Below are positions 15,042 through 55,741 of a DNA stretch of 64,000 nucleotides, in pieces (within the stretch, counting starts at the first letter, position 1; each line of letters begins with the position of its first letter). Source of the DNA: Rikenellaceae bacterium (GTDB lineage Bacteria > Bacteroidota > Bacteroidia > Bacteroidales > Rikenellaceae). The notes under the pieces were generated by a model. That model was given only the letters and a program-made list of their open reading frames with translations, did no database searches and had not been told where the DNA came from. Location: contig JAGBFQ010000024.1 of the NCBI GenBank assembly GCA_017936385.1, positions 4,927 to 68,926 of the forward strand, given 5' to 3'. A program made the translations under genes and the position numbers.

Positions 15042-16346
15042 CTAATACGCCTCAACCCTTAATTTCACTCCTCCGATTGAGATTATATCACCAGGTCTTA
15101 TCTCCATTCCCTCTTGTGAAACCATATCGGAATTAACAAATGTTCCATTAAGCGAACGTGTCCATATTTCTTTAGACTCCTTGCACCATTGGCCATCACG
15201 GATATACCAAATATCCCTTTCGCAATCCAATTCCAAAGTACAATGACGACGAGAAATATACGTGGATGCTAATTCCGATAATTGTATCATATTAAAAACG
15301 GAATTATCAGCACGACCAATCGTTATAATACGTCTTGGAGACTGTGCAATTTCAGGCAATCTATAATATTTACCACAATCATCGCCTTGCATTACATGTA
15401 ACACCAATCCATTTTGAATAACTATTGGAGCTTCAACCTGACTATCTCTTGCGCCTTTGTAAGGATAACAGTTTGCGGGCATTTTATCGAGCAGTTCATC
15501 AATATTTCTTGCTCGTTTGCTTGCATCTGCTTGCAAACAAGCATTCAGAATACTTAACCACATTTCACTATTTTCATCCCTCAACAATAGGTTGCTATTC
15601 CACTCATTATTCCTTGCGCGTGTTTGATACAGAACCCAATCCGAGTCCGTATTCAATGGTCCAAAGGGCAACTCACCTGTCAATAGCTGATAAAGAATAA
15701 CTCCAAACGAAAATATATCAACCGTAGGCAAAATGGTAGAACATTTCTCAATGCGATATAATTCGGGAGCTCGATAAGCTTTCGTACTATCTACCGTTCT
15801 CATCTGCCTTGAGCTATTATCAATGGCGCCACGTCGCCCAAATGTCACATAATTAGTTATCACAGCATGGTCGCCCTCTGTAATCAACACATCCTCGGGA
15901 GTTAATTGACCATGTACTTTTCCCGATTTATGCAAATCTCTCAAACCATACAGAATCTCCTTCACTACTTTGATTGTATTCAGCCTTGGATTTGACATCA
16001 AGTGCGACAACTCTTCCGAACTACAATATTCCATCAACAAATATGGATTACCATTCACACGTCCCGAGTGTGTGATGGTTGTCAAATAATTACTCTTAAT
16101 CCTACAACTCTTTATTTCATTCTCGGCCGAATGCAACATACTTTGACGTAGACGAGATTCCACATCCCAAAGTTTGAGTAGTTTTAGAATATACTCTTTT
16201 CCTGAAGTATCATTCACTTTGAACTTTTGGTCGGTTTGAGAGAAACCCAATACCCGTTCCACTCTAAACTTACCATCTATCATATCATGCATGCGAAAAT
16301 CGCAGCGTTGAACTATATTATTTTTCATATCATATTCATTTTTCAA
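15042..16346 (-). CDS. Ser/Thr protein kinase-like domain (predicted pseudokinase) fused to a C-terminal FHA domain
   Basis: 434 aa. The kinase fold is recognisable (YILK lysine, YRAPE, DIFSFGVILYQLLTGELPF). The catalytic loop reads HGQLTPED instead of HRDLKPxN, and DFG is replaced by TNY. The C-terminal FHA is canonical (IGR...ISRRHC...SLNGTFVN). Confidence 0.85.
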   Translation of the reverse strand: MKNEYDMKNNIVQRCDFRMHDMIDGKFRVERVLGFSQTDQKFKVNDTSGKEYILKLLKLWDVESRLRQSMLHSAENEIKSCRIKSNYLTTITHSGRVNGNPYLLMEYCSSEELSHLMSNPRLNTIKVVKEILYGLRDLHKSGKVHGQLTPEDVLITEGDHAVITNYVTFGRRGAIDNSSRQMRTVDSTKAYRAPELYRIEKCSTILPTVDIFSFGVILYQLLTGELPFGPLNTDSDWVLYQTRARNNEWNSNLLLRDENSEMWLSILNACLQADASKRARNIDELLDKMPANCYPYKGARDSQVEAPIVIQNGLVLHVMQGDDCGKYYRLPEIAQSPRRIITIGRADNSVFNMIQLSELASTYISRRHCTLELDCERDIWYIRDGQWCKESKEIWTRSLNGTFVNSDMVSQEGMEIRPGDIISIGGVKLRVEAY

Positions 16347-17618: not shown

Positions 17619-19307
17619 TTAAGATATGGTCAATTGATAACTAAAACTCTTTCTCAACTCAATATTAATCTTCAAATAATTGAAGAAATCGGAATTATTA
17701 ACTTCGGTTTTCAAGGCCTCCGACAGGATATTGAAATGTATGTTTATACACTTCTCAATATGGCCATCGATAGGAACATAGCTCTCGGAAAGTGATATAT
17801 TGCAAGAGTTGATGGCTTCTTCGCCAAAAGCACGCATGAATTCTACTTTGCAATATTGCAACAGGTCGATTTTCGTAAACAAACGGTCGTTGCTATTCAC
17901 AATATGCCTTACCAACTCTTTACGAGTATTCAAGTCCTTGATTTTATTTCGTCCTCCGGTTGCATCTATCAATGCTTCTATATCTCCAACAGCAGCATTC
18001 GTCGATGTTAATTTGCCTCCACGTCTTAAAAGATTACCACGTTCTCCATTTGTCGTAAAATATGTCAGAACCATTGGTTGCTGATTATTTTGAGGTTTGC
18101 GTATAGCATATGCACCCCCATACGAACGAGGACGTTCTGAACGATACTCATCAAGTGAATCATAAATCTGCATCATCGAATGACGCAACGAGCGCAACAT
18201 TGCACCATCATGCAACGAATTACTATCCACAAATGCGTAGTAATCATTCACATAGTGATGATACAGACTGGTTATATCTTCACGTATACGCTCGTTGTCA
18301 TATTGGCTCACGTCAAAATCTCGGATAAAGTAATCTTGAGCCAACTCTTGATTTTGTACAACCTCTAAAAAATATGTATCTGTTTTATCATTCTCCAAAC
18401 GTTGTATCGGTTCGCTATAACTCAGTTTCACATTTTGAATATCATAATTCACAACCGGAATGCTATTCAACTGTATGGCTGTTTCAAGTGGTAATGAGAT
18501 ATTTTCAGACGACTTAATTCGTATCCACAAAAAGCGATTACCTACAAACGGTTCTATTACCTCTTGTGCATAGGAGTCCATTATCCATGCCGGTATTTCG
18601 CCACGATTGAGAGTCCGTTTATTGGAGCACTTCCCAAATCGGTAAAGCCACAACCCATAATAAACCAAACTTTCTTTCCAAAACTCCTTTAGCATAAAAT
18701 TTGAATTCATTGCACATGGAGTATCATCCATCACCAACGACATAGGAATCTGCACGTCACCCACTTCGGCCATGAGTTGGTTCGATGGTAATGGATGTGA
18801 AAAAGCGATTGTGACATCTTCTAATGTATTAACTTCCCCCAAAGCGTCAAATGCCAACCAAATTTCATGTTTGTGTCTATTTTCTGGCCAAGTAGCTTGT
18901 AATGGTGCCCTATTGGGTTGCAACAACGTATTATTCATAAAACAGGCAGCAATACGTCCGGGAATAATACGACTCTTAAAAATAGGACGGTAATTACATT
19001 TTGTTGCCTTATATGAGAACGCATCATTCTCATCAATGTAATAAGGGGTGTACTCCTGTCCATTGCCTATGCTCACCACCGTAACAGCGGGCTGTGCTTG
19101 CAAATTACCATGTTGCAAAACTTGATTGCAAAACTGTTCTGATAATTTCGCAACCGTTTGGTCCATTTTTCTCTCAATCTCACAAGATTGATGAGCCATG
19201 GCAACGAGCATCATTTTGGCAATAGGGTCAGATAACGAAATACGCTGTTCGTCCTGTTCCAAGGCTCGTTGCAAGTCGACTACTTTATTTCTTACTTTTA
19301 TGTCCAT
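17619..19307 (-). CDS. tssF: TssF-like T6SS baseplate subunit (gp6-like)
   Basis: 562 aa. The N-terminal pattern DPIAKMMLVAMAHQSCEIERKMDQTVAKLSEQFCNQVL...QPAVTVV parallels the conserved TssF DPyVErL..gfAFL...kLDdE.PelTe..l..L.P.yl..iPs block. Its start overlaps the tssE-like stop by 1 nt. Confidence 0.7.
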   Translation of the reverse strand: MDIKVRNKVVDLQRALEQDEQRISLSDPIAKMMLVAMAHQSCEIERKMDQTVAKLSEQFCNQVLQHGNLQAQPAVTVVSIGNGQEYTPYYIDENDAFSYKATKCNYRPIFKSRIIPGRIAACFMNNTLLQPNRAPLQATWPENRHKHEIWLAFDALGEVNTLEDVTIAFSHPLPSNQLMAEVGDVQIPMSLVMDDTPCAMNSNFMLKEFWKESLVYYGLWLYRFGKCSNKRTLNRGEIPAWIMDSYAQEVIEPFVGNRFLWIRIKSSENISLPLETAIQLNSIPVVNYDIQNVKLSYSEPIQRLENDKTDTYFLEVVQNQELAQDYFIRDFDVSQYDNERIREDITSLYHHYVNDYYAFVDSNSLHDGAMLRSLRHSMMQIYDSLDEYRSERPRSYGGAYAIRKPQNNQQPMVLTYFTTNGERGNLLRRGGKLTSTNAAVGDIEALIDATGGRNKIKDLNTRKELVRHIVNSNDRLFTKIDLLQYCKVEFMRAFGEEAINSCNISLSESYVPIDGHIEKCINIHFNILSEALKTEVNNSDFFNYLKINIELRKSFSYQLTIS

Positions 19308-27586: not shown

Positions 27587-28993
27587 TTATTTAATTTCAT
27601 TTGTCCATTCTGTCACGCCGTTTTCTCCATTATGTCCTGTCAACTTAATGTAGAAGTTCTTTGCGGCAAAGAAGGGCTTCAATTCTATCTCAATCTCAAT
27701 ATCTTTGGTCTTTTCGTTACGAACAATCTTAGGATTGGAGTATCCCTCGATAAGTTTACCGGGACCTTTGTAATCCTCGAGAAAATCTATAACTTGTTCT
27801 CGAAGTTCTTGAGCTAACTTACCATTCCAATTTTTGAATGCTTCATCATTGAAGAAATTAGAGAATACCTTGCCTATCCAGTCGAATACGCGAACAATGG
27901 GATACTCTTGCAAACCAATAGTTGCACCATTATAAAGTGAGCGGTTCGAAAAGGCCATTACTCTATTTTCCTCAAATGTCATAGGTACGACACCCTTGTC
28001 AATCAAAGCGGTAAGCTCGGACTTGAGCAAATCAAGACGAGTGCCTTTTGCCATATCTATTGTGCCATATTTCTTTCCGGCAATACCTTGTGAAATCGGA
28101 GTTTCATCTGTATTGCTCATACGACCGGCAATAGCTGCGGAAGGGGGCAGGAATAAATCTTCTTCCTCCTCATTATTTTCATCCGATTTCTTACGACCAA
28201 GAATATAGTTACAAGCCATAATAACGTTGGCCAAGTAGGCGTCCGTATCACTCAAGTTGGCTTTATCCAAACCCTTGTTCAGAAGTTTAAGTGTAGGCGA
28301 GTCAGCATAATCCGTAACCAGCATTACTTTGTTTCGATACGCCATCTGTCCCCACATATTCACCACCTGCTTGCTACCCAAATAACCTGGGCTTACAAGA
28401 AGTGAATAATTCTCTTTCAACGACAGACGGTCGTAACTTCTGTTCAACTCATCACGTACTGCTGCAAATACACGACCATCAGGGTCTCCCAAATCCTCTT
28501 TATCTACGTTTATCAGATTCAGACATTGGAGTTTTGCTTGACCTGAGTTTGCAAAGAATTCTCCAAGCGAACGATAAGCAGTTTCCAATTTGCGAGTCTG
28601 CTCATGCACACTACCAAGATTTTGAAGTAGGTTCTTTTCAGCAGCCTTTGCAGCCTCTTGACACTTCTCTACAGCTTCAGACGCAGTTGTAGCCTCACTA
28701 TCAAGGATATTCAGCCACATGAGCAAATCTGTCTTCAAACGTTTACGTTGTTCTGCAAATTCACTATCTTGCAAAAAGATTTTTTTTGCAGCTCTGCTTT
28801 CGGGATTCATATTCTCCAATCCGTCTGCCATCGTTTCCAAAAGGTCGAAATCGCCATAGTCTTCCAAACCTTCTATGCTTTCTTTTAAACGTTCAGCAGG
28901 ATTGTCAATTTTCTTTATCTCTTCCAAATAAGCACTTTCGGCTGTTGTAACAACGCTCGCGGCTTGTGCTTGTGGCATCAATTCTTCTGACAT
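27587..28993 (-). CDS. tssC: TssC contractile sheath large subunit
   Basis: 468 aa from the internal Met (MSEELMPQAQ). The ORF-track start at 29092 would overlap tssB by 71 nt. Size and position after tssB fit, and the conserved-looking core is VTDYADSPTLKLL...ACNYILGR...GIAGKKYGTIDMAKGTR. Confidence 0.8.
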   Translation of the reverse strand: MSEELMPQAQAASVVTTAESAYLEEIKKIDNPAERLKESIEGLEDYGDFDLLETMADGLENMNPESRAAKKIFLQDSEFAEQRKRLKTDLLMWLNILDSEATTASEAVEKCQEAAKAAEKNLLQNLGSVHEQTRKLETAYRSLGEFFANSGQAKLQCLNLINVDKEDLGDPDGRVFAAVRDELNRSYDRLSLKENYSLLVSPGYLGSKQVVNMWGQMAYRNKVMLVTDYADSPTLKLLNKGLDKANLSDTDAYLANVIMACNYILGRKKSDENNEEEEDLFLPPSAAIAGRMSNTDETPISQGIAGKKYGTIDMAKGTRLDLLKSELTALIDKGVVPMTFEENRVMAFSNRSLYNGATIGLQEYPIVRVFDWIGKVFSNFFNDEAFKNWNGKLAQELREQVIDFLEDYKGPGKLIEGYSNPKIVRNEKTKDIEIEIELKPFFAAKNFYIKLTGHNGENGVTEWTNEIK

Positions 28994-29021
28994 AATTATA
29001 TCTGAATTTATCGGGTTTACT

Positions 29022-29471
29022 TTATTGATTTTTCTCCAACTCTGCAAGAAGTGCTTGCAATGCAACAACCAGGTGTTTCCTGCTTTCTTCATCTTCGAAT
29101 GCGCGTCTAAGAACTTTATTCTTAATCAACTGTTGCTCAATCGCATTATAAGAGTCAATAGCTGCTTTTTGTTGACCCAAATAAGCACTTTGCTTTATCA
29201 GTTCTTTATCATCAAAGTCCTTAATCGCATTGAATTTGAAATTCTCCTTTATAGGACGACCTTCCAAATCCAGCATTTGCACATTGCGTTTTTCGGGTTG
29301 GTAGCGTTCAAAGACATCCTCCATAGTTTCGGGTTGAAAAACTTCACCCGGTTTAACCGGTGCCACGTCCGTAAACTGGTCTACATAAAGAGTTCTGTTT
29401 TGTGGAAATTCAATAATCCCATCTACTGCCTCAGCATCGAGGACTTTCGAAATTACTGTTTTCTTTGCCAT
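29022..29471 (-). CDS. tssB: TssB contractile sheath small subunit
   Basis: 149 aa. FKFNAIKDFDDKELIKQSAYLGQQ resembles the TssB F.smdDF.P..va.qv..L block. It lies directly upstream of tssC. Confidence 0.7.
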   Translation of the reverse strand: MAKKTVISKVLDAEAVDGIIEFPQNRTLYVDQFTDVAPVKPGEVFQPETMEDVFERYQPEKRNVQMLDLEGRPIKENFKFNAIKDFDDKELIKQSAYLGQQKAAIDSYNAIEQQLIKNKVLRRAFEDEESRKHLVVALQALLAELEKNQ

Positions 29472-29498: not shown

Positions 29499-31751
29499 TT
29501 AATTCGAATGTGATACATCCCATTTAAGTTCATCTTGTTCACTTATTGTGAGGGTCACACTATCACCCTCGTTCAACTCACCTGAGATTATCATCTTTGA
29601 TAATGGTCGACGAATATCCTTTCGGAGAATTCCAAGAATAGGTCTTGCTCCATACTGAGCATTAAACCCACTCATTGCAATCTTGTGGACAGCCTTATCA
29701 TCAACAGTAAGTGTAATATTTTGTTCTTCCAAAGTTTTCAACAATCCCTTCAAGTGAATATTGAAAATCATCGTTACAATCTTCTCGTTGATTGGTGCGA
29801 AAGGAACAATTTCAGTAAGGCGAGCCAAAAATTCCGGACGGAAATGTCCTTGCATCACTTCAAGCATATCATTATGTGTCGGGACAATATTTTTTGCAAA
29901 TTGTTCAAACACATATTGACTACCAATATTGGAAGTGAAAATAATTAACGCATTAGAGAAATCGCCCACACGACCCAATCTATCATGTAACTTACCCTCA
30001 TCAAGAATCTGCAAGAATAAGTCAAATACTGAACGATGAGCCTTTTCAATTTCATCAAAAAGCACAATAGAATATGGTTTCTGGCGGATTTGGTTTACCA
30101 ACAAACCACCTTCTTCATAACCAACATATCCTGGAGGCGCGCCATAAAGCAGAGCCACCGAGTGCTCTTCCTTATATTCCGACATATCAAATCGAAGAAT
30201 TGCTGTATCATCCTGGAATAAAAACTCCGCTAATGATTTTGCAAGTTCGGTCTTACCTGTTCCAGTAGGACCGAGGAAGAAGAAACTTCCGATAGGTTGT
30301 CCTTTTTTGTTCAATCCGGAACGAGACTCATAAATCGAATCCAACACCGCTTTGATTGCATGGTCTTGACCGACTACACGTTTCTTCAGTATATCCTCCG
30401 CATTAACAAGTCTATCACGTTCTGCCGCTTGAACATTACCTAACGGGATACCTGTTTTTTGCGACACAACCTCCATCAGATGCTCGACCCCTACAATATC
30501 TTTCTTTTCTTCAGGATTCAAATCATTTTTGATTTTCAACAAGGCCATTGTCCTATCTATCAAATCTATTGCAGAGTCAGGCAGATGTTTTTCACTGAAA
30601 TATCTCTTGGCAAGTCTAATTGAATTTATCGTAAAATCTTCCGAGACCGTCAAATTATGGAATGTTTCGAATGATTTTACAACAGATTGAAGAATAATGT
30701 TGGTGGCATCAACAGAAGGTTCCTCGATAATAATACGCTCAAACTTGCCTAAGATTTCTTTATCCGTTTCTATATTCTTTGTAAATCCTTCTATCGAGGA
30801 GGTACAAATACACAACAAACCTTGATTCAACGAAGATTTCAAAAGGTTAATTGTACCATTGAGTGTACCCTGTTTATCCATTAATTTATCGAATGATTCA
30901 ATAACAAGAATCGCATTATCCTTGTCAGATAACTCATCCAATATTTTTTTCATTCGACCCTCAATTTCGCTTTTGTACGAAACGCCAATAGACAAAGCAA
31001 TTGTATCAAGTTCATAAACCTGTGCATTTTGCAGATAAGTAGGAACAACGCCTTTCGATATTGCTTGCACAAAAGCATTCACCAATGCAGTTTTACCGAC
31101 ACCCGATTCTCCTGTTATAAGAATATTGGATTTAGTTTTACGTCCAAGAATTCCATAAATTTCTCCAAGCTCTTTCTCAAAACCAATAGTTTCAGACAAT
31201 TGTCCATCGGATTGTTGCTGATTCTTAAGAATGCAATAACTCTCGATACTTTTACCCGCAGAATTTTTTGAACGTTTTTTCACTTCGCCATTAGATGTAT
31301 TACCTCCTATAACGTTTTGACTTCCACAAGCAGCAACAATACTTTCTTTTTGAAGCGGCAATGTTTTCAGCTGTTCAAATGTAAATCCGACACCAGGAGT
31401 TACAACTGCTATAAGTAGTGAGATAGCGTCAATCGACTCTTTCTTGGCTGCGGCACGAATACTATCAGCCTCACTAACAACTGCCTTTGTCAATGCTGAA
31501 AAACCTTTAGCTGAAGAATCAGAACTTTTCTTGGACATTTTAATTCGCATGTCAGCCCACTCCAATATATAGTAATAATCCGCATCTAAAGTCTTCTCAA
31601 CAAAAGAAACCAAACCAATATCTTTGTGTAAAAGAGCCTTCAAAACATGAGCCGGTTCTATGGCCGCATTCATATTCTCTTTTGCATACGCCTCTGCTAT
31701 CTGAAAAACTTCAATTACACTTTCGTCAAATCCGTCTAATTTATTGGTCAT
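29499..31751 (-). CDS. clpV: ClpV (TssH) AAA+ sheath-recycling ATPase, ClpB family
   Basis: 750 aa. Clp_N-like N-domain, D1 Walker A GESGVGKT and D2 Walker A GPTGTGKT with Walker B VLFDEIEKAH. The D1 Walker B reads ILVIESFD (degenerate). Confidence 0.9.
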   Translation of the reverse strand: MTNKLDGFDESVIEVFQIAEAYAKENMNAAIEPAHVLKALLHKDIGLVSFVEKTLDADYYYILEWADMRIKMSKKSSDSSAKGFSALTKAVVSEADSIRAAAKKESIDAISLLIAVVTPGVGFTFEQLKTLPLQKESIVAACGSQNVIGGNTSNGEVKKRSKNSAGKSIESYCILKNQQQSDGQLSETIGFEKELGEIYGILGRKTKSNILITGESGVGKTALVNAFVQAISKGVVPTYLQNAQVYELDTIALSIGVSYKSEIEGRMKKILDELSDKDNAILVIESFDKLMDKQGTLNGTINLLKSSLNQGLLCICTSSIEGFTKNIETDKEILGKFERIIIEEPSVDATNIILQSVVKSFETFHNLTVSEDFTINSIRLAKRYFSEKHLPDSAIDLIDRTMALLKIKNDLNPEEKKDIVGVEHLMEVVSQKTGIPLGNVQAAERDRLVNAEDILKKRVVGQDHAIKAVLDSIYESRSGLNKKGQPIGSFFFLGPTGTGKTELAKSLAEFLFQDDTAILRFDMSEYKEEHSVALLYGAPPGYVGYEEGGLLVNQIRQKPYSIVLFDEIEKAHRSVFDLFLQILDEGKLHDRLGRVGDFSNALIIFTSNIGSQYVFEQFAKNIVPTHNDMLEVMQGHFRPEFLARLTEIVPFAPINEKIVTMIFNIHLKGLLKTLEEQNITLTVDDKAVHKIAMSGFNAQYGARPILGILRKDIRRPLSKMIISGELNEGDSVTLTISEQDELKWDVSHSN

Positions 31752-31878: not shown

Positions 31879-32448
31879 CTATATTTTGCCAATATCATTT
31901 TTACTAATTTCCACACATATATATCCAAACAAATTCAGATATACACCAACCATTGGTTTTCTATCTTCAACATAACACAACTCCCCACACAATCCTTTCA
32001 ATGGTCCACGTACTATTTCTATTTTTTCGCCCAATTCAAACACTGTTTCAGCTACTTTGACCTTCGAGTCTGCATTACTTAACATAAATTTCAACCTATC
32101 AATCTGCTCTTCAGGTATTATTGCTGCCTCAGACTGTCCTGGATACGACAATAGTTTATAAACAAAGGAGTATGATTTTATCTCCTGCTCAACACGTTTA
32201 TTCACGTACGCAAAAACGACCATCGGGATAACAACCTTTTCTATTCTCTTTTTACGGTCGCTCCATTGGTGTATTTCAGTTTGTGTCGGCACATAATTTC
32301 GAATTCCCAACTTGGTCAATTTCTCACTCGTTTTCTTCTCTGTATTCATTTGAACGAGCATCGCAATCCAATATTTAGGGCACGCTTCGCGTTCGTTTGT
32401 CACATCAACAAACGAACGGTCGCATTTATTACACCCAATATTAGACAT
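31879..32448 (-). CDS. UpxY-family (NusG-like) transcription antiterminator; first gene of the T6SS-like operon
   Basis: 189 aa. NGN domain (WIAMLVQMNTEKKTSEKLTKLGIRNYVPT...VIPMVVFAYV) and a C-terminal KOW motif (GEKIEIVRGPLKGLCGEL). Confidence 0.8.
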   Translation of the reverse strand: MSNIGCNKCDRSFVDVTNEREACPKYWIAMLVQMNTEKKTSEKLTKLGIRNYVPTQTEIHQWSDRKKRIEKVVIPMVVFAYVNKRVEQEIKSYSFVYKLLSYPGQSEAAIIPEEQIDRLKFMLSNADSKVKVAETVFELGEKIEIVRGPLKGLCGELCYVEDRKPMVGVYLNLFGYICVEISKNDIGKI

Positions 32449-32467
32449 TTTATCGGCCTATTTCTAC

Positions 32468-32488
32468 ACATCTTCTAAAAGGAGATGT
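32468..32488. repeat. inverted repeat, left arm (IR-L) of the putative inverton
   Basis: ACATCTTCTAAAAGGAGATGT is the exact reverse complement of 32645-32665. Confidence 0.9.
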
Positions 32489-32598
32489 ATATAGGGCGTA
32501 TCATAATGTAAAATAATTAGTTTATGAATGCTAAAGTCAAATAAAATGGTGTAATATGTATAAAAAAGATGATTAAATAGATATTTATTTGTTTTATA

Positions 32599-32631
32599 AT
32601 TGGGTGGAAATAAAAAAAATACATATCTTTG
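32599..32631 (+). promoter_or_regulatory. Bacteroides sigma-A type promoter inside the inverton, currently facing away from the operon
   Basis: ATTG (32599-32602), a 21-nt spacer, then TATCTTTG (32624-32631). This matches the TTTG / TAnnTTTG consensus on the plus strand. Confidence 0.55.
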
Positions 32632-32644
32632 TGAAATATAACAC

Positions 32645-32665
32645 ACATCTCCTTTTAGAAGATGT
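32645..32665. repeat. inverted repeat, right arm (IR-R) of the putative inverton
   Basis: ACATCTCCTTTTAGAAGATGT is the exact reverse complement of 32468-32488. Confidence 0.9.
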
Positions 32666-32722
32666 ACATTAAGTTATAAACGCAAAGGGGACGGGTTGTT
32701 TTACGAATAGTTTTCACACAAA

Positions 32723-32768
32723 ACGCCACGAGGTTCGACCATAATGGTCGAACCTCGTGGCGTTTTTG
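32723..32768. terminator. strong bidirectional terminator downstream of lpxA; marks the right edge of the AT-rich island
   Basis: 18-bp perfect stem ACGCCACGAGGTTCGACC / GGTCGAACCTCGTGGCGT with a 5-nt loop, flanked by AAAA and TTTTT. Confidence 0.9.
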
Positions 32769-32780
32769 CACAAGCACTTA

Positions 32781-33578
32781 TTAGTCTTCGGTATCGCCGA
32801 GTGCTGCGTTGTATGGTTTGATTACGCCACGTTTCGAGGCACGAACAAAATCCACAATCAAATCACGTTCGGGGCTACGTTTTACCGTATCCTCAACAAT
32901 ATCGCATGCTCTGCCATAGCCATAGCCGCTTTGGAACAGAATACGGAAAATCTCTTGTATCTCGCCAATCTTTTCAGAAGTGAAACCTCTACGACGAAGG
33001 CCTATATAGTTGGCCCCCACAAACGACAACGGGTTACGAGCCGCCTTAACAAACGGAGGAACATCCTTACCCACCAGCGAGCCGCCACTTACCATAGCGT
33101 GTTCGCCAATTCGCACGAATTGGTGCACCGCAGAGTTTCCGCCCAAAATAGCCCAATCGCCAATCACAACCTCACCCGCAACCAACACGGCATTCACAAT
33201 CACGCAGTGGCTACCCACCACGACATCGTGACCGATGTGCGAACATGCCATAAAGAGGTTATAGCTACCAATCACGGTTTTACCCTTGGCTGCCGTACCA
33301 CGGTTGATGGTACAAGCCTCGCGGAAGGTGTTATAGTCGCCGATTTCGAGCGTGGTGTATTCGCCCTTGAATTTCAAATCTTGAGGCTCGCCGCCAAGGA
33401 TTGCGCCGAACACCTTGCAACCCTTACCCATGCGTGTACCGGGCAGAACCTGCGAGTTGGGGCCGATATAACAATCGTCGCCAATCACAACATCCGAACC
33501 CACATAGGCAAACGGTTCGATGGTTACGTTCTGGCCGATTACAGCATCGGGATGAACGTATGCTAAATTACTAATCAT
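32781..33578 (-). CDS. lpxA: acyl-ACP:UDP-N-acetylglucosamine O-acyltransferase
   Basis: 265 aa. Left-handed beta-helix hexapeptide repeats through the N-terminal two thirds and a helical C-terminus. It lies downstream of lpxC-fabZ. Confidence 0.9.
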   Translation of the reverse strand: MISNLAYVHPDAVIGQNVTIEPFAYVGSDVVIGDDCYIGPNSQVLPGTRMGKGCKVFGAILGGEPQDLKFKGEYTTLEIGDYNTFREACTINRGTAAKGKTVIGSYNLFMACSHIGHDVVVGSHCVIVNAVLVAGEVVIGDWAILGGNSAVHQFVRIGEHAMVSGGSLVGKDVPPFVKAARNPLSFVGANYIGLRRRGFTSEKIGEIQEIFRILFQSGYGYGRACDIVEDTVKRSPERDLIVDFVRASKRGVIKPYNAALGDTED

Positions 33579-43304: not shown

Positions 43305-44492
43305 TTAAAACTCTATTTTATCCAGAATACCCGTCAATGCCGCAATCGCCACACCATAGTTGGTAATTGGCACCTCGGCAGCCCGTGCCCGTGCCACGCG
43401 GCTCATCACATGTCGACGGTTGAACATACACGCGCCACAGTGAATAATAAGGTCGTACGAACTGAGGTCATCGGGAAAATCCGCACCACCAACAACATCC
43501 ACGGTCAACGCCTCACCCACCTTTCGGCGCAACATTCGCGGCAATTTCACGCGGCCTATATCTTCGTTTTGAGGTGCGTGAGTGCACGCCTCGACAATCA
43601 GCACACGCGACTGCTCGGTCAGCGCGGCTATCATCTTCGCACCCTCGACAAACTCACCAATATCGCCCTTGTAGCGGGCCATCAGCACCGAGAACGAAGT
43701 TAACTTCGACCCTTCGGGCTTCTGCCGCCACACCGCATCGAACACCTGCGAATCGGTAATAATCAGCCGGGGTGGTTCGGCCAAAGCACTCAATGCTGCG
43801 GCCATATCCTCCGTCGTGCAACACATTGCACGACATCCCCTATCGAGCAACTCGCGCAGGGTTTGCACCTGCGGTTGAATCAATCGTCCTTTGGGCGCTT
43901 GTTTATCTTGAGGCATAACGAGCAGAACGGTATCGCCCGCCTCACAAAAACCTTCGGTCAGCAATCGCGGCTCCTCGGCTCGGCATGCAGCCAAACGACG
44001 ACGCAGTTCATCCATACCCTCTCCCGTCAGCGCGCTTGTGCATACGGGAGCTATCCGCGTGGCCTGCTCTACGCGAACGGCAACACTTTCGGCTTCACCC
44101 ACACGGTCACATCCCGCCACAACCGTTACCACAGCAACTTCACGTTGACGCAGCTCCTCGACCACGGCCAACTCCACGCTCCAATCCTCGCTATCCGCAA
44201 ACAGCACCACAGCAATATCCGTACGGTCCATAACCCGTCGGGTAGCGCGCACACGTTCCGTACCCAGCACCGTATTGTCGTCGAGTCCCGGTGTATCGAC
44301 AAGTGTCACCGCTCCCAAGTCTGGCAACTCCATAGGTTTATTCACGGGGTCGGTGGTTGTTCCTGCGACATTCGACACAAGGGCTACTTGTTGTCCGGTG
44401 AGGGCATTGATTAGCGACGATTTGCCGCTATTGCAACGACCAAAGAAGCCGATATGCAAGCGTTCGGAAGAGGGAGTTTGAGCCATAAACAT
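43305..44492 (-). CDS. hydF: [FeFe]-hydrogenase maturation GTPase HydF
   Basis: G1 motif GRCNSGKSSLINAL, G3 motif DTPG, and C-terminal cluster ligands CTHAPQ...HCGACMF. It sits in a block with hydG and hydE. Confidence 0.85.
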   Translation of the reverse strand: MFMAQTPSSERLHIGFFGRCNSGKSSLINALTGQQVALVSNVAGTTTDPVNKPMELPDLGAVTLVDTPGLDDNTVLGTERVRATRRVMDRTDIAVVLFADSEDWSVELAVVEELRQREVAVVTVVAGCDRVGEAESVAVRVEQATRIAPVCTSALTGEGMDELRRRLAACRAEEPRLLTEGFCEAGDTVLLVMPQDKQAPKGRLIQPQVQTLRELLDRGCRAMCCTTEDMAAALSALAEPPRLIITDSQVFDAVWRQKPEGSKLTSFSVLMARYKGDIGEFVEGAKMIAALTEQSRVLIVEACTHAPQNEDIGRVKLPRMLRRKVGEALTVDVVGGADFPDDLSSYDLIIHCGACMFNRRHVMSRVARARAAEVPITNYGVAIAALTGILDKIEF

Positions 44493-45916
44493 TAAAATCT
44501 GAAATCTCGCTGGCCGAGCGAAATTTCGCCCAGACGTCGCTCGGTTATATCTCTTACTTTGTCCGAAGGAATCATCTTCAACTCGCGAGCAATCACATCC
44601 ACGCCCAAGCTACGGGTGTGCGGCGAGGCATAATCCTCCAAATACTCCTTGAGGGTCATCAGTGCATTCGGTCCACAGCAATTGCCTATCTTACCGCTCT
44701 TGGCCAACATCATAAAGCGGTCGCCCGTGCGTCCCTCGCGGTAACAGGCTGTGCAGAAACTTGGTACATAACCCAATTCCAACAGCCACGCCACAATCTC
44801 ATCCAATGAGCGTGTATCCGAAATGTCAAATTGAGCCGACCTATCGGCATCCTCAACTCCCTCGGCATAACCGCCCACGCTGGTACGCGAGCCGCCGCTG
44901 ATTTGCGACACACCCACATCCAATACCAACTCCCGTGAACGAGCCGACTCGCGGGTCGAAACAATCATTCCCGTATAAGGCACCGCCAAACGCAGCACCG
45001 CCACAATTCGACGGAATACCTCGTCGGTCACGGCATTGGGGAAGTCGGCCGGGTCGATGTCGTCGGCCGGACGTATGCGCGGAACGCTAATGGTGTGAGG
45101 TCCCACTCCGAAACGAGCCTCCAAGTGTTCGGCATGCATCAGCAGTCCCACCAAGTCATAGCGGTAGTTGGTCAATCCAAACAGTGCACCGATTCCCACA
45201 TCATCAATTCCACCCTCCATTGCGCGGTCCATAGCCTCGGTATGGTAGGCCCAATCGCTCTTGGGGCCCGTGGGGTGAAGTTGCTCATAGGTTGCGCGGT
45301 CATAGGTCTCCTCAAAGAGAATATAGGTTCCGATTCCCGCATCGCGCAGCAGTCGATAGTTTTCGACCGTAGTTGCGGCAATATTCACATTCACTCGGCG
45401 GATTGCTCCGTTGCGGTGGTGAATCGAGTAGATGGTATCAATCGACTCCAGCACATACTCAATGGGGCTTTGAATGGGGTGTTCGCCCGTTTCGAGCGCA
45501 AGGCGTTTGTGCCCCATATCCTGCAACGCGATAACCTCGCGGCGAATCTCCTCCTGCGAGAGTTTGCGACGCGGGATGGTACGGTTCTTGGCATGATAGG
45601 GACAATAGACGCAACCATTGATGCAATAGTTCGACAAGTACAACGGTGCAAACATCACAATACGGTTGCCATAGATGCGTTGTTTAATCTCTCGTGCCAA
45701 TTCAAACAAGCGTGCCACCTGCTCCTCGCGGTCGCACTCCATAAGCACCGCAGCCTCACGGTGTGTCAAACCTTTGTGCTCGGCGGCCTTTGAGAGTATC
45801 TCGTCCACCAGAGCCACATCATTTCGGTGGGCGGCGGCATACTCCAAAGTCGCCCTCACCTCGCCGTCGTGAATAAACTCGGCGGCGTGTTCCGATTTTA
45901 CGTTATATTCGACCAT
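44492..45916 (-). CDS. hydG: [FeFe]-hydrogenase maturase HydG (radical SAM tyrosine lyase)
   Basis: Radical SAM motif CINGCVYCPY and a C-terminal Cys cluster region (SFCTACYR). The internal Met (MVEYNV) is preferred because the ORF-track start at 45970 overlaps hydE. Confidence 0.9.
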   Translation of the reverse strand: MVEYNVKSEHAAEFIHDGEVRATLEYAAAHRNDVALVDEILSKAAEHKGLTHREAAVLMECDREEQVARLFELAREIKQRIYGNRIVMFAPLYLSNYCINGCVYCPYHAKNRTIPRRKLSQEEIRREVIALQDMGHKRLALETGEHPIQSPIEYVLESIDTIYSIHHRNGAIRRVNVNIAATTVENYRLLRDAGIGTYILFEETYDRATYEQLHPTGPKSDWAYHTEAMDRAMEGGIDDVGIGALFGLTNYRYDLVGLLMHAEHLEARFGVGPHTISVPRIRPADDIDPADFPNAVTDEVFRRIVAVLRLAVPYTGMIVSTRESARSRELVLDVGVSQISGGSRTSVGGYAEGVEDADRSAQFDISDTRSLDEIVAWLLELGYVPSFCTACYREGRTGDRFMMLAKSGKIGNCCGPNALMTLKEYLEDYASPHTRSLGVDVIARELKMIPSDKVRDITERRLGEISLGQRDFRF

Positions 45917-45935
45917 TTTTAGTTTCTCCTCAGTT

Positions 45936-46973
45936 TTATCGTTTGAAATCTCCACGTGCGTAATCCACATGGTAGCCGATTTCGTTCAACTCTTTTTCTA
46001 ATTGCGCCAGCCCCTCGGCAGCCTCGCTACCACTGCTGGCCTTGCCCTCATAGATGGCGTATTTACTCCTCACACTTCGGGGCGATAGGTTGGGCATCAC
46101 CACATTTGCACCCGAAAGTATTCCTTCGCGGCGTCCATTAGGCGCGAGTGTAGCCAACGCCGTTGTTGCTGGTATCAGAGTCCGCGGGAACATCAACCTT
46201 ACGACCGCCACCAAAAGCAGTGTCATTCGCAGACTTCCCGCCGAGTGCTCTCCCAATGGTGTATCTCGGTGGGGAATAAACGGGCCAATGCCTATCATCT
46301 CGGGATTCACCCGCTCCATAAACAGCAAATCCTCCACAAGCGACTCCACCGTCTGTCCGGGTACTCCGACCATCATACCCACACCCGTTTGGAATCCCAA
46401 CTCCTTTAGGTCGGCAATACACCTCAAACGTCTTTCCCACGACATCTCGCTCGGGTGCAGGCTCTCATATAGTGTTCGGTCTGCCGCCTCGTGACGCAAC
46501 AGATAGCGGTCGGCACCCGCCTGCCGCAACACCTCATAAGACTCCCTGCTACGTTCGCCCAACGACAATGTAACAGCCGCGCCCTCACACTCGCGTTTGA
46601 TTTGCCCTATGAGCCGCGTCAGCCTTGCATCCGTCCACACAGCATCCTCGCCCCCCTGCAACACAAAGGTCCTAAAACCTGCGGCATAGCCCTCACGACA
46701 GCACTCCAAAATCTGCTCATCACTGAGGCGGTATCTCTCGGCTCGGGTGTTGCTACGTCGGAGTCCGCAATACAAACAGTCGTTACGACAGACACTTCCA
46801 ACCTCAACAAGTCCCCTCACATAAATGCCGCGTCCGAACTGCTCACATGCAGTTCGGACAGCTTCATGGCGCAAAAAACCAAGAGTCGGGTCGTCACACT
46901 CGGCAAGGAGCGTGCGGTAGCCCGCGGCGTCAAGTCTGTGCGTGCGGGTCAGACGTTCGGCCAACTCTTTCAT
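45936..46973 (-). CDS. hydE: [FeFe]-hydrogenase maturase HydE (radical SAM)
   Basis: 345 aa. Motif CRNDCLYCGLR with BioB-like architecture, adjacent to hydG and hydF. Confidence 0.9.
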   Translation of the reverse strand: MKELAERLTRTHRLDAAGYRTLLAECDDPTLGFLRHEAVRTACEQFGRGIYVRGLVEVGSVCRNDCLYCGLRRSNTRAERYRLSDEQILECCREGYAAGFRTFVLQGGEDAVWTDARLTRLIGQIKRECEGAAVTLSLGERSRESYEVLRQAGADRYLLRHEAADRTLYESLHPSEMSWERRLRCIADLKELGFQTGVGMMVGVPGQTVESLVEDLLFMERVNPEMIGIGPFIPHRDTPLGEHSAGSLRMTLLLVAVVRLMFPRTLIPATTALATLAPNGRREGILSGANVVMPNLSPRSVRSKYAIYEGKASSGSEAAEGLAQLEKELNEIGYHVDYARGDFKR

Positions 46974-46990
46974 TTATAGCGAAGTTTATT

Positions 46991-48433
46991 CTATCGTTTC
47001 AACAACTCCTTGTTATAGGTTTGACGACCGGCCTCAAATGTAGTGTGGGTACTCGGACCCGAGATACATCCACCCTCACAAGCCATAACCTCGATGAATT
47101 GGGCAGGCACTTTGGCGGGTACTTTGCCATAAACCTTCATCAAGCCGACATTCTTCTTGGTAAGTGGCGACACCAGCGCGTTGGTAAACTCAAAAGCACC
47201 TCCGACGTGTGCCTTAACAGCGGCGGTAACACCACCCGTTGCTGCAAAACCGTGAGCCGTGCGAATCGAGGTGAACGGAATCTGGTAAACTCTCTTTTCG
47301 TTCATATCAATACCCATACCGTCGAAGATTGCGTGCAACTCCTCGAAAGTCATCACATAGCTTACCAAGTCATCCTTGCGCGCCTCTTTACGTTTGGCGA
47401 TACACGGGCCTACGAACACCAATTTGGCGTCGGGGTATTTCTCACGTGCGATTTCGGCGGTATAGTACATCGGCGAGCGAGTCGTCGAGATGTATTTCTT
47501 CAATTCGGGGGCGTGCTTCTCGGCCATCTCGATGTATGCGGGGCAACACGAGGTGGTCATAAACGGAGCACCCTCCTCCATACGCTCTTTGAACTCGGCA
47601 GTCTCTTTCTCGGTGGTAACCATAGCGCCCTGAGCTACCTCAATTACATCGGTAAAGCCGATAGCCTTGATAGCACCATATACCTGCTCGGTAGGAACGT
47701 TATATTGCGACAGCACTGCGGGGGCAACCATAGCCACCACTTGTTCGCCGCGGCGAATGCTTTGCAGAATATCGAACACTTGCGAAATCTCGAAAATAGC
47801 ACCGAACGGGCAACTATTCAGACACTTTCCGCAATAGATACACTTCGACTCGTCGATATGCTCCACGCCATACTCGTCTTTGGTAATTGCACCCACAGGA
47901 CACGACTCTTCGCACGGAACGGGAATATAAACGAGTGCGTGATAGGGGCAGTTCTCGAAACACTTACCGCAGCTGATACAGATACTGTGGTTGATGCGTC
48001 CCTGACTTGTCTCGGGGTCAAACTCGATGGCGTTCTTGGGGCAAGCACTTGCACAAGCACGAGCCACACAACCACGACACAAGTTAGTAATATTGTAGTT
48101 GGTGCGCACACACGACGAACAAGCCTCGTCAATCACGCACATGATATTCTCTTTAAGTTTGTCACGTTTGAGCGCTTGGCGGGCGTACTCCGACAGAGGG
48201 GTAAGTTCGTCCGTTTCGTCGCTCATATCGAATCCCATCAGCGGGAGCGATTTGTATTTCCATACAGCTCTCTCTTTGTGCACACAGCAACGGCCCAACA
48301 CTTTGGAGCGTTTGGGGCTAAGTTCGATGGGCAGTCGGTCGATTTCCTCTACAAGTTTGTTTTCATTCCACAGTTTGATGAGTTTGGTCAACAATCTTTG
48401 TCGAACAATCATCACATTATTCTTAATTGCCAT
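46991..48433 (-). CDS. hydA: [FeFe] hydrogenase catalytic subunit with ferredoxin-like 4Fe-4S domains
   Basis: H-cluster motifs TSCCPAY, GPCIAKRKE and MACEGGCISGP, plus CxxCxxCxxxCP motifs (CISCGKCFENCP, CIYCGKCLNSCP). The start is taken at the internal Met (MAIKNN). Confidence 0.85.
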   Translation of the reverse strand: MAIKNNVMIVRQRLLTKLIKLWNENKLVEEIDRLPIELSPKRSKVLGRCCVHKERAVWKYKSLPLMGFDMSDETDELTPLSEYARQALKRDKLKENIMCVIDEACSSCVRTNYNITNLCRGCVARACASACPKNAIEFDPETSQGRINHSICISCGKCFENCPYHALVYIPVPCEESCPVGAITKDEYGVEHIDESKCIYCGKCLNSCPFGAIFEISQVFDILQSIRRGEQVVAMVAPAVLSQYNVPTEQVYGAIKAIGFTDVIEVAQGAMVTTEKETAEFKERMEEGAPFMTTSCCPAYIEMAEKHAPELKKYISTTRSPMYYTAEIAREKYPDAKLVFVGPCIAKRKEARKDDLVSYVMTFEELHAIFDGMGIDMNEKRVYQIPFTSIRTAHGFAATGGVTAAVKAHVGGAFEFTNALVSPLTKKNVGLMKVYGKVPAKVPAQFIEVMACEGGCISGPSTHTTFEAGRQTYNKELLKR

Positions 48434-48555
48434 AACGGGTTTTTCGTTTATGTTTGCCGCGAAGATACCATTTTTTATGCAAATAAAAAAGAGTTGCCCG
48501 ACAAAACTTGTCAAACAACTCCACATACACCCAAATGTGTATAAAACAAGAGGTC

Positions 48556-53394: not shown

Positions 53395-54750
53395 CTACAA
53401 CTTAAACAGTCCCAATTCATTAACGAATACAAGGGTTATAAGAATCGGAATGACATATTTCAGCGCCACGACCCACACCTTGGCCAATCGCCAGCGCAGG
53501 GTTCCGTGGTTTGTCACCTCGTTGATGAGCTCCGACTTATCCAATCGCCAGCCCATGAACACACACAGAAGCAGGCTACCCAGCGGCATCATAATCTTGG
53601 CGGTCACATAGTCCAAAAGGTCGAACAGACACATACCCGCAATCTGCACGTCATTCATCACGCCCAAACTCAGCGAAGCAAACACAGCCAGCACCGCCGC
53701 AAGGCACGACACAACAAGTGCCGACTTACGATTCGAGAGTCTGAACTCCTCTTCGACATAGGCTGTCACCACTTGATGCAACGAAATCAACGAAGTGATA
53801 GAGGCCAAAGCCAACAGCAGAAAGAAGAAGAATGACCACACCGAACCCCAAGGCAGTTGGGCAAAGATATTAGGCAGAGTGACAAATACAAGATTCGGGC
53901 CTTGAGTGGGCTCGATTCCGAAAGTAAACACAGCAGGAAAAATCACAACACCAGCCAGCAGCGCAACCGAGGTATCGAGCAGACTCACGGTGGTAACCGT
54001 ACGCGGCAGGTTGACATCCTTCTCGAAGTAGGATGCATAGGTAATCATCACACCTGCGCCCAAACTCAGCGAGAAGAAGGCTTGCCCCATGGCACTCAGT
54101 ACAACACTCGAATTGATGGCCGAGAAGTCGGGTTTGAACAGAAACGACAGGCCCTCGCGTGCGCCGTCCAACGTCAGCGAGTTGCCACACAGCACCACCA
54201 ACAGCACAAACAACAAGGGCATCATGAATTTCGATGCTCGTTCGATACCCTTCTGCACACCACCTATAATAATAAGGTGAGTTATCAGGAACATCAGCAC
54301 CGTCCAAAATATAGGTTGGAAAGGTGAGGAAGAGAACTCAACGAACGATTGAGAAAATTGTTCGCTGGTCATTCCCTCTATTCCACCCGACACCGACTCC
54401 CACATATATTGGAATGTCCAACCTGCCACCACGGTATAGAAACCGAGAATCAACAAGCAAGAGAACACTCCCAAGTAGCCAATTCGGCTGAATACAGGGT
54501 GACTGCTCATACGACGAAAGGCCTCCACCGAGTTTGTTTTGGCCATACGACCGAGTGTCATTTCGGCCATCAGTGTGGGAATACCGAGGATAAAGACACA
54601 AATCAAGTAGACCAACAAGAAAGCACCTCCGCCATTCTGTCCCGCCTCGTAGGGGAATCTCCAGATATTACCGAGTCCGACGGCACTGCCTACGGCCGCC
54701 ATGATAATACCAATTTTACTCTTAAAAGTTGCGCGTGAATCACTATTCAT
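53395..54750 (-). CDS. sodium-dependent transporter (SNF / neurotransmitter:sodium symporter family)
   Basis: GLGNIWRFPY signature and ~12 TM helices. The start is taken at the internal Met (MNSDSRATF). Confidence 0.9.
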   Translation of the reverse strand: MNSDSRATFKSKIGIIMAAVGSAVGLGNIWRFPYEAGQNGGGAFLLVYLICVFILGIPTLMAEMTLGRMAKTNSVEAFRRMSSHPVFSRIGYLGVFSCLLILGFYTVVAGWTFQYMWESVSGGIEGMTSEQFSQSFVEFSSSPFQPIFWTVLMFLITHLIIIGGVQKGIERASKFMMPLLFVLLVVLCGNSLTLDGAREGLSFLFKPDFSAINSSVVLSAMGQAFFSLSLGAGVMITYASYFEKDVNLPRTVTTVSLLDTSVALLAGVVIFPAVFTFGIEPTQGPNLVFVTLPNIFAQLPWGSVWSFFFFLLLALASITSLISLHQVVTAYVEEEFRLSNRKSALVVSCLAAVLAVFASLSLGVMNDVQIAGMCLFDLLDYVTAKIMMPLGSLLLCVFMGWRLDKSELINEVTNHGTLRWRLAKVWVVALKYVIPILITLVFVNELGLFKL

Positions 54751-55015: not shown

Positions 55016-55741
55016 ATGACCACACAACAACGCGCCAAACGACGCAGACATCTTAACCCTAAACTCCGCCCCTATCTCTACGGCTTCCTGATTATCATGG
55101 CGGCCTACATCACCCATGGTGTAATCAAACGCCAAGCAGTCAAAGAGGATTTGGAGATGTTACATCGGGCACAAACTGCAACCATACACTATCAATACAA
55201 ATACTCGCGCATGTTCCGCGACCTTAACGATGTGCAACTCGAGTCGGCACGCAAGGTGGGTTTCGAACCACTCGCCACACGCGACAGCAAACCCTCGAAA
55301 CGCTACAAGACCCTCGAAAGTTGCGAACTCTACCAACTTGACCCGCTGAAATATTCGGTGCCTATTTTGGTTCCCGAGGCGGCCGAGCTATTGGAGGATA
55401 TCGGACGCGGTTTTGCCGATTCACTCGACCGTCGTTTCGGAATTAGAGGAGTGTGCCCCTTTGTGACAAGCGTCACGCGCACCGAAGAGGATGTCAAAAA
55501 ACTACGCCGCTCGGGCAACGTCAACGCCTCGAAGAACTCCTGTCACGTCTACGGCACAACGTTCGACATGGCCTACAACCGTTTTTATAAGCACACGGGA
55601 GTCACGGCAACCATCAAGTCGGCCATGATGAAACAGATGCTGGCCGAGGTGCTCAAGAATCTGCGTGACCAAGGACGTTGTCACGTCAAATACGAGTACA
55701 AACAAGCCTGTTTCCACATCACCGTCGCCGCACAAGAGTAA
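55016..55741 (+). CDS. membrane-anchored hypothetical protein, possibly LAS/VanY-type (M15-like) peptidase
   Basis: 241 aa. Basic N-terminus plus a TM helix. SCHVYGTTFDM resembles the S-x-H-x-x-G-x-x-x-D zinc-ligand motif of VanY-like enzymes. The product call is tentative. Confidence 0.5.
   Translation: MTTQQRAKRRRHLNPKLRPYLYGFLIIMAAYITHGVIKRQAVKEDLEMLHRAQTATIHYQYKYSRMFRDLNDVQLESARKVGFEPLATRDSKPSKRYKTLESCELYQLDPLKYSVPILVPEAAELLEDIGRGFADSLDRRFGIRGVCPFVTSVTRTEEDVKKLRRSGNVNASKNSCHVYGTTFDMAYNRFYKHTGVTATIKSAMMKQMLAEVLKNLRDQGRCHVKYEYKQACFHITVAAQE

Follow-up and report, generated by a model that had tools for sequence, protein, structure and literature searches.

In the Bacteroidales, promoters that are turned over by site-specific recombination ahead of upxY-led operons are well known, and it is a type VI secretion system (T6SS) as their cargo that is unusual. 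The T6SSiii loci of human gut Bacteroidales show the GA1-GA3 architectures, and the repeats used by Mpi, the invertase of the Bacteroides fragilis capsule loci, have the core ARACGTWCGT. Here we analysed a stretch of 64,000 nucleotides (the window) from an uncultured ruminant-gut Rikenellaceae bacterium (assembly GCA_017936385.1, contig JAGBFQ010000024.1), in which a 198-bp inverted-repeat element (32468-32665) precedes a UpxY-family gene and about 17 kb of T6SSiii genes, and we consider it highly probable that this element is an inverton, a site-specific-recombination switch, that controls transcription of the T6SSiii operon and was assembled in its OFF orientation. Cassettes made of an invertase, an invertible promoter and upxY, including IP-ARG-1 to -3 and related glycan loci, have been catalogued in gut Bacteroidales with PhaseFinder (Yan et al. 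2022, PMC8748976). That paper gives the promoter consensus as TTTG at -33 and TAnnTTTG at -7, reports only 4 of 96 such promoters as mainly ON, and mentions T6SS operons in passing among the variable regions behind such promoters on ICE34-like elements. In B. fragilis, the PSA-PSH polysaccharide promoters are inverted by the global serine invertase Mpi, with regulation by UpxY and UpxZ (Krinos 2001, Coyne 2003, Chatzidaki-Livanis 2009), and the Tsr tyrosine-recombinase invertons work on sites nearby as well as at a distance (Weinacht 2004, Roche-Hakansson 2007, Nakayama-Imaohji 2009), both as cited in PMC12632263.

The window locus resembles the catalogued cassettes in its repeats around a promoter, its upxY-type gene in first place, its place among variable cargoes, its mostly OFF orientation and the tyrosine type of the invertases concerned. 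It differs in having no invertase gene adjoining the switch, lpxA and a putative terminator standing there instead, in its setting, the edge of an acquired chromosomal low-GC island of a ruminant Rikenellaceae-like metagenome-assembled genome (MAG) with no identified integrative and conjugative element, and in its cargo, an apparently complete T6SSiii operon directly after UpxY. With the B. fragilis capsule switches it shares the repeat-promoter-repeat arrangement, a upxY gene heading a long operon and, presumably, a trans-acting logic and antitermination of the UpxY type. However, it falls outside the Mpi-dependent invertons: its 21-mer ACATCTTCTAAAAGGAGATGT holds no ACGT, which agrees with an earlier remark that the repeats do not look like the Mpi core given above. 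Furthermore, Mpi is a serine enzyme whereas the recombinases beside switches of the window's class are tyrosine enzymes, and the capsule loci have upxZ and glycan cargo whereas here no upxZ-like gene is present and the cargo is a secretion machine. The Tsr invertons, likened here by their general design, offer a tyrosine recombinase, short near-palindromic repeats and an example of a single enzyme that flips an orphan site at a distance, but they control outer-surface proteins, SusC/D paralogues or exopolysaccharide and not a UpxY-led T6SS. In turn, the operon has the ClpV, TssC, Hcp, VgrG and PAAR-like components of Bacteroidota T6SSiii, together with TssB-, TssK- and TssF-like ones, and differs in being headed by a UpxY-family gene and a probable invertible promoter. 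In the literature searched, whose coverage was incomplete, neither a UpxY gene nor an invertible promoter heading a T6SS is described beyond the remark in PMC8748976 and its preprint.

Repeats and promoter of the switch

The gene-proximal repeat ACATCTTCTAAAAGGAGATGT (32468-32488), presumed to be a recombinase core site, and the distal repeat ACATCTCCTTTTAGAAGATGT (32645-32665) are reverse complements at 21 of 21 positions, with complementarity ending at 21 nt in both directions, and bracket a promoter-bearing segment of 156 bp (32489-32644). Allowing up to three mismatches, the 21-mer occurs at these two sites only in the window; two matches were obtained in none of 100 shuffles, and an analytic estimate places below 1e-4 the chance of a perfect 21-nt inverted repeat with its copies within 1.2 kb anywhere in 64 kb. 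Each 21-mer is itself near-palindromic, with 9-nt arms ACATCTYCT, an asymmetric AAA centre and 8 of 10 symmetric pairs, and gives a hairpin on folding. Compared as direct repeats, the two copies match at 16 of 21 positions and differ at five (7, 10, 11, 12 and 15); the preliminary description of this DNA had counted six, and its conclusion that the pair is truly inverted stands, since the asymmetric centre lies within near-palindromic copies. The repeats belong to a class that we write as ATCTYCT-N3-5-AGRAGAT, and further sites of this kind would read CATCTYCTNNNNRGRAGATG.

As in other switches of this kind, the repeats enclose a short intergenic segment (about 150-320 bp in this class) and a -7 box reads outward near one of them. 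The inner segment has a GC content of 20.5%, against 47% for the window, and its plus strand carries the Bacteroides-type -7 box TATCTTTG (32624-32631), 13 nt from the distal repeat and directed away from the operon, preceded at a distance of 21 nt by an imperfect -33 element, ATTG (32599-32602; consensus TTTG). On both strands of 32449-32780 this is the single perfect TAnnTTTG, and in the OFF orientation the only box found facing the gene has one mismatch (TTTATTTG, 32538-32545, minus strand). In-silico inversion of the segment moves the perfect box to 32502-32509 on the minus strand, facing the UpxY-family gene, which begins 19 nt past the switch. In its assembled orientation the promoter faces a perfect 23-bp hairpin (32720-32766) between the switch and lpxA, with T-runs on both strands and folding energies of -44.5 and -42.5 kcal/mol (z -8.4 and -10.2). 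This hairpin is likely to be a bidirectional terminator that ends lpxA transcripts and would insulate lpxA from antisense transcription in the OFF state. The exact arms around AT-rich DNA, both promoter elements and their direction, the lack of a perfect minus-strand box near the switch, the one-mismatch box, the position of the promoter after inversion and the strong hairpin had all been put forward in the preliminary description, and each was found again here.

Two further observations concern the promoter sequences. Inside clpV, on the plus strand and hence antisense, a 29-nt stretch (31603-31631) shares 76% identity with the promoter end of the segment (32608-32636), and both contain ATATCTTTGTG; as the window holds 69 perfect TAnnTTTG boxes, this similarity may be due to chance. 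A scan for sigma-70-type promoters and terminators returned 5 promoter-like sites against 5.4 expected and missed the long hairpin, and was set aside as uninformative for Bacteroidota.

Related switches and their recombinases

For the UpxY-like protein 641 homologues were found, the closest of which are 66-68% identical to it, and the comparison covered 80 loci from species-representative genomes as well as additional contigs that carry the closest homologues. Perfect pairs of repeats, 12-29 nt long and 158-316 bp apart, are present at about 30 of the 80 loci, where they end 40-85 nt before the gene. Of 22 segments bounded by repeats ahead of UpxY-family genes, 21 have a perfect outward TAnnTTTG at 4-15 nt from one repeat, and the same geometry is seen in L098-L108; the chance of meeting such a box there, in AT-rich DNA, is estimated at about 0.02 per locus. 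The layout of repeat, promoter, repeat and upxY that had been recognized in the window is thus a recurrent one. The 21 box-bearing segments comprise 19 in the OFF and 2 in the ON orientation. The half-site class of the window occurs also in L020, L028, L029, L035, L051, L096, L098, L100 and L108.

In three pairs or sets of near-identical loci the members differ only by reverse-complementation of the inner segment, and comparison of their sequences demonstrates inversion of this layout in relatives. In two Muribaculaceae genomes, one OFF (L021) and one ON (L022), the loci have a common 18-nt repeat, an identical gene-side flank and a near-identical upstream flank, and their inner segments are 88% identical after reverse-complementing one of them as against 62% in the same orientation. 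In the second set, two ON loci (L100, L102) and one OFF locus (L101) encode an identical UpxY protein and carry the repeat CATCTTCTCTTAGGAGA, which is of the window's class; a single arm mismatch stays with the flank, which indicates a crossover in or inward of the central spacer. The third set, also of the window's repeat class, consists of L098 and L099 (OFF) and L106 (ON).

The association with a T6SS recurs as well. L021 and L022 have the order recombinase, switch, UpxY, ClpV, TssB, TssC, and the order from UpxY to TssC is kept in L040, L041 and L037; the switches of L040 and L041 are OFF, and the upstream sequence of L037 is too short to judge. As assigned from these gene orders, the architecture is found in Muribaculaceae, Cryptobacteroides and other Bacteroidales, several uncultured lineages among them. 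The closest UpxY relatives (65-68% identity; L104 1742-12317, and also L098, L106 and L107) have flipping switches of the window's repeat class and a cargo with no T6SS, made of FHA proteins, two Ser/Thr kinases, a PP2C phosphatase, an FHA-trypsin protein and an outer membrane protein beta-barrel; the T6SS island of the window likewise ends in a kinase-FHA gene (15042-16346). Additionally, the TATCTTTG promoter of L024 and L025 is a fixed one that lies, without repeats around it, about 60-130 nt upstream of the UpxY-like match (match start at locus position 3501), so that invertible and fixed promoters coexist within the UpxY subfamily.

At many of the related loci the likely invertase is encoded next to the switch. 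In L021, L022, L026, L035, L040, L041, L098, L100 and L108 a tyrosine recombinase of 395-416 aa, with Phage_int_SAM_5 and Phage_integrase domains and at times an Arm-binding domain, ends just before the distal repeat, and in the Bacteroides loci L043-L047 this position is held by an enzyme of about 320 aa. The recombinases group by the half-site class of the neighbouring repeats: identity is 62-96% within the GTTCT class, 55-62% within the ATCTCC class and 79-97% within the GTTAC class, compared to 32-53% between classes. This pattern indicates that the adjacent enzyme is the probable invertase and that the half-sites are its predicted binding sites.

The window departs from these UpxY-linked switches in having no recombinase beside its switch. 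None of its about 57 open reading frames (ORFs) matched a recombinase family in Pfam or NCBIfam, and tblastn with 13 recombinases, those of related loci included, gave no match in the window, in keeping with an earlier reading of the sequence; an invertase of this switch would therefore have to act in trans. No recombinase match was found either in the fetched flanks of L028, L029, L051 and L096, of the ATCTCY class, two of which (L029 and L051) belong to one MAG and have the common core ATCTCCTGCGAGGAGAT. Such orphan switches of the same class, twice in one MAG, make a trans-acting enzyme that serves several sites plausible here.

The exact 21-mer had no match in 185,579 species-representative genomes, which implies that these genomes lack the source species or at least this region of its DNA. 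In a metagenome collection it was found in one sequence from two samples (L001 1811-1831; L002 3702-3722), and the window's own locus was not returned by the exact 21-mer scan, from which we take it that the collection lacks this organism. In L001 and L002 the 21-mer occurs once, with a T-run behind it; two tandem tyrosine recombinase genes immediately precede it, and on its 3' side lie an Rhs-C-terminus-like fragment and small ORFs, one of them DUF6939, a layout that resembles a recombinase-associated orphan toxin/immunity array. We rejected these recombinases as the cognate invertase and regard the match as probably coincidental: L001 and L002 have no other similarity to the window, their recombinases are unrelated to the enzymes found at switches of the same class, and a hairpin-type 21-mer is not improbable in a collection estimated at about 10^12 bases.

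Orientation at this locus and competing explanations

Contigs of the same species, 99.96-100% identical to the window, were gathered from ruminant-gut metagenomes by exact-protein look-ups with UpxY, LpxA and LpxC-FabZ (SRR12529165 and SAMN15830108 are examples of samples with this organism), and orientations were counted among the ten contigs listed for the species. Eight of these span the whole switch and all of them have the OFF orientation of the window; a ninth (L012), which reaches 68 nt into the segment from its proximal end, is OFF as well, and the tenth is uninformative. The OFF state earlier proposed for the assembly is therefore also that of the other samples at the junctions covered, and its predominance matches the 4 of 96 mainly ON promoters given in PMC8748976. 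In the flipped state the junctions would read ATTTCTAC-repeat-GTGTTAT at 32468 and AACAC-repeat-GTAGAAAT at 32665. One of the OFF contigs (L009) starts with ATTTCTAC, followed by the repeat and by the inner segment in minus orientation, and has the OFF junction at its other end. As ATTTCTAC is the reverse complement of the gene-side flank, the junction at its start exists only in the flipped state. The tenth contig (L011), recovered in two assemblies, starts at the first base of the proximal repeat, the very point at which a de Bruijn graph would fork in a sample with both orientations. These signals are suggestive of mixed orientation in at least two samples and, although short of proof, make flipping of the switch at this locus likely.

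Several points weigh against an active switch that governs the operon. The -33 element is imperfect, and the one-mismatch gene-facing box means that the OFF state is perhaps not fully silent. Nine of the ten listed contigs are OFF (eight over the complete switch and one in part), and the exact-protein look-ups found no full-length contig of the species in the ON orientation. The evidence for ON at this locus amounts to 8 nt in L009 together with contig breaks, signals that a coverage gap or repeat-mediated chimeras formed during library preparation could equally mimic. Lastly, the absence of any recombinase family among the window ORFs leaves the switch with no enzyme of its own at hand.

A rival explanation is a relic, a genuine inverton by descent whose invertase was lost when the low-GC island arrived with no recombinase gene, so that the switch would be frozen OFF and the T6SS silent or under a weaker fixed promoter. 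Such a locked state would account for every complete contig being OFF and for lpxA standing where a recombinase gene precedes the switch in L021, L022, L040, L041, L098, L100 and L108, and the one-mismatch box at 32538-32545 would be a candidate for the weaker promoter. We nevertheless regard it as improbable, because the 21-nt arms are still identical where drift is expected once selection is gone, the T6SS ORFs are intact over about 17 kb, L009 has an ON-type junction and L011 a fork-type break, and other genomes too have orphan switches of this class, one MAG even two of them, as expected for a trans-acting invertase.

We give still less credence to the idea that the 21-mers are operators of a palindrome-binding regulator, or small hairpins or terminators, within a fixed AT-rich regulatory region where no recombination takes place. 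The near-palindromic, hairpin-forming nature of each copy speaks for it, as does the terminator-like setting of the identical 21-mer, with a T-run after it, behind a recombinase gene in the unrelated L001 and L002. However, the match of 21/21 in inverted against 16/21 in direct comparison means that an asymmetric centre is preserved in the inverted orientation, neither copy in the window has a T-run after it, the spacing between promoter and repeat is conserved, and homologous repeat pairs in relatives bound segments that are seen in both orientations. Least probable of all is a chance insertion upstream of the operon of a 198-bp miniature transposable element with 21-bp terminal inverted repeats, for although the element is short and AT-rich, with perfect terminal repeats and a place at the edge of a horizontally acquired low-GC island, it is present in one copy in 64 kb, shows no target-site duplication beyond a 2-nt AC, has a 21-mer absent from the species-representative genomes, and shares its position at UpxY genes and its promoter geometry with families that have different repeats, a conservation that fits a dedicated switch and not a mobile insertion.

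The T6SS operon, its surroundings and a proposed mechanism

The operon genes named here lie on the minus strand. The first (31879-32448) encodes a NusG paralogue of 189 aa that belongs, as judged from its scores against NCBIfam NF033644 antiterm_UpxY (132.3 bits, cutoff 100) and Pfam NusG (36 bits vs 22), to the UpxY family of NusG-like antiterminators. It is followed after 127 nt, with no upxZ-like gene between, by a ClpV-type AAA+ ATPase (29499-31751) that is 54-57% identical to the ClpV encoded after UpxY in L021, L022, L037, L040 and L041. The TssB-like small sheath subunit (29022-29471) has no Pfam or NCBIfam match and was assigned by synteny, being 53-59% identical to the product of the gene between clpV and tssC in the same five loci. 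Then come the TssC sheath subunit (27587-29092; Pfam TssC, E = 7e-131) and, each recognized by a family match, Hcp (TssD; 26629-27078), the VgrG spike protein (23471-26617), a PAAR-like DUF4280 protein (22611-23453) and an M23 peptidase that may be an effector (21775-22566). The baseplate proteins resembling TssK (19840-20838) and TssF (17619-19307) matched below the curated cutoffs, the latter weakly. A Ser/Thr kinase with an FHA domain (15042-16346; family match) is the last gene of the low-GC island. The upxY-like first gene and the T6SS-like operon of the preliminary description are therefore upheld, the latter by ClpV, TssC, Hcp, VgrG and the PAAR-like protein, which are clear, as well as by the sub-cutoff TssK and TssF. 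Five operon ORFs have no family match, and no gene could be assigned to TssE, TssG or the Bacteroidota-specific TssN-R. The 508-nt gap between hcp and tssC (27079-27586) contains two overlapping ORFs, one of 136 aa on the minus strand (27149-27559) and one of 229 aa on the plus strand (27128-27817), the latter with no match in Pfam or NCBIfam.

On the other side of the switch lie the housekeeping gene lpxA (32781-33578, minus strand), in the position held by the tyrosine recombinase at related loci, and, beyond it, lpxC-fabZ, whose product has the accession MBP3426142.1. The block from about 14.4 to 32.7 kb has a GC content of 36-40%, with 49-54% in both flanks, and in a related Rikenellaceae MAG (GCA_017464745.1; same 90%-identity LpxC-FabZ cluster) lpxA is followed by S9 peptidase and NUDIX genes. 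The low GC content together with these unrelated genes after lpxA identifies the T6SS, the UpxY gene and the switch as an acquired island. The related MAG was considered as an empty site; its differing synteny shows that the island is accessory, but it gives no precise boundary. The island is bordered by a LytTR/histidine-kinase pair at one end and by lpxA at the other, and no integrase or transfer genes occur in it. Elsewhere in the window, a [FeFe]-hydrogenase gene stands beside a HydF-type GTPase and two radical-SAM genes resembling HydE/HydG-type maturases (43305-48526), a cluster that looks like ordinary metabolic surroundings. The arms of a perfect 15-nt inverted repeat (GGCCGCCATGATAAT, 54694-54708, and ATTATCATGGCGGCC, 55091-55105; 382 nt apart) lie within the 5' ends of two divergent genes, one for a DUF5715 protein and the other for an SNF-family symporter; the number of such pairs estimated by chance in the window is about 0.07.

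Taking the element as an active inverton, we propose the following mechanism. In the OFF state the promoter would fire away from the operon into the bidirectional hairpin by lpxA and serve no gene. A tyrosine invertase acting in trans, most likely an enzyme of about 400 aa with Phage_int_SAM_5 and Phage_integrase domains that belongs to the ATCTYCT clade and is encoded elsewhere in the genome, would bind the near-palindromic 21-bp sites, exchange strands in the asymmetric centre and flip the 156-bp cassette. With the switch ON, the minus strand would carry the -7 box at 32509-32502, transcripts would begin a few nt ahead of the proximal repeat, at a predicted start near 32495 about 5-8 nt downstream of the box, and they would have a 5' untranslated region of about 45 nt that includes this repeat. 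The UpxY-family antiterminator would then be made first and would presumably keep RNA polymerase processive through clpV, tssBC, hcp, vgrG and the PAAR-like, baseplate and kinase genes.

More tentatively, and with somewhat less than even confidence, we suggest that production of the T6SS is a form of bistable bet hedging at the level of the population, set by an orphan inverton within a multi-locus regulon of a single trans-acting tyrosine invertase and requiring a dedicated UpxY-type NusG paralogue for read-through of 17 kb. In this regard, sites of the ATCTYCT class also head the FHA/kinase/PP2C clusters of the closest UpxY relatives and two UpxY-led loci of one MAG (L029, L051). To our knowledge, how Bacteroidales time the building and firing of their T6SS is largely unknown, and the switch described here offers a concrete, testable answer for the regulation of some of these loci, with an architecture that recurs in at least five other species-level genomes. 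A map of half-site classes against tyrosine invertase clades could predict which recombinase runs which orphan switch. If the proposed control is true, only a subpopulation would be armed at any time, which would affect how T6SS antagonism in gut communities is measured and modelled and would explain silent T6SS loci in isolates or MAGs, and the combination of DNA inversion with operon-specific antitermination would be an undescribed regulatory logic for type VI secretion.

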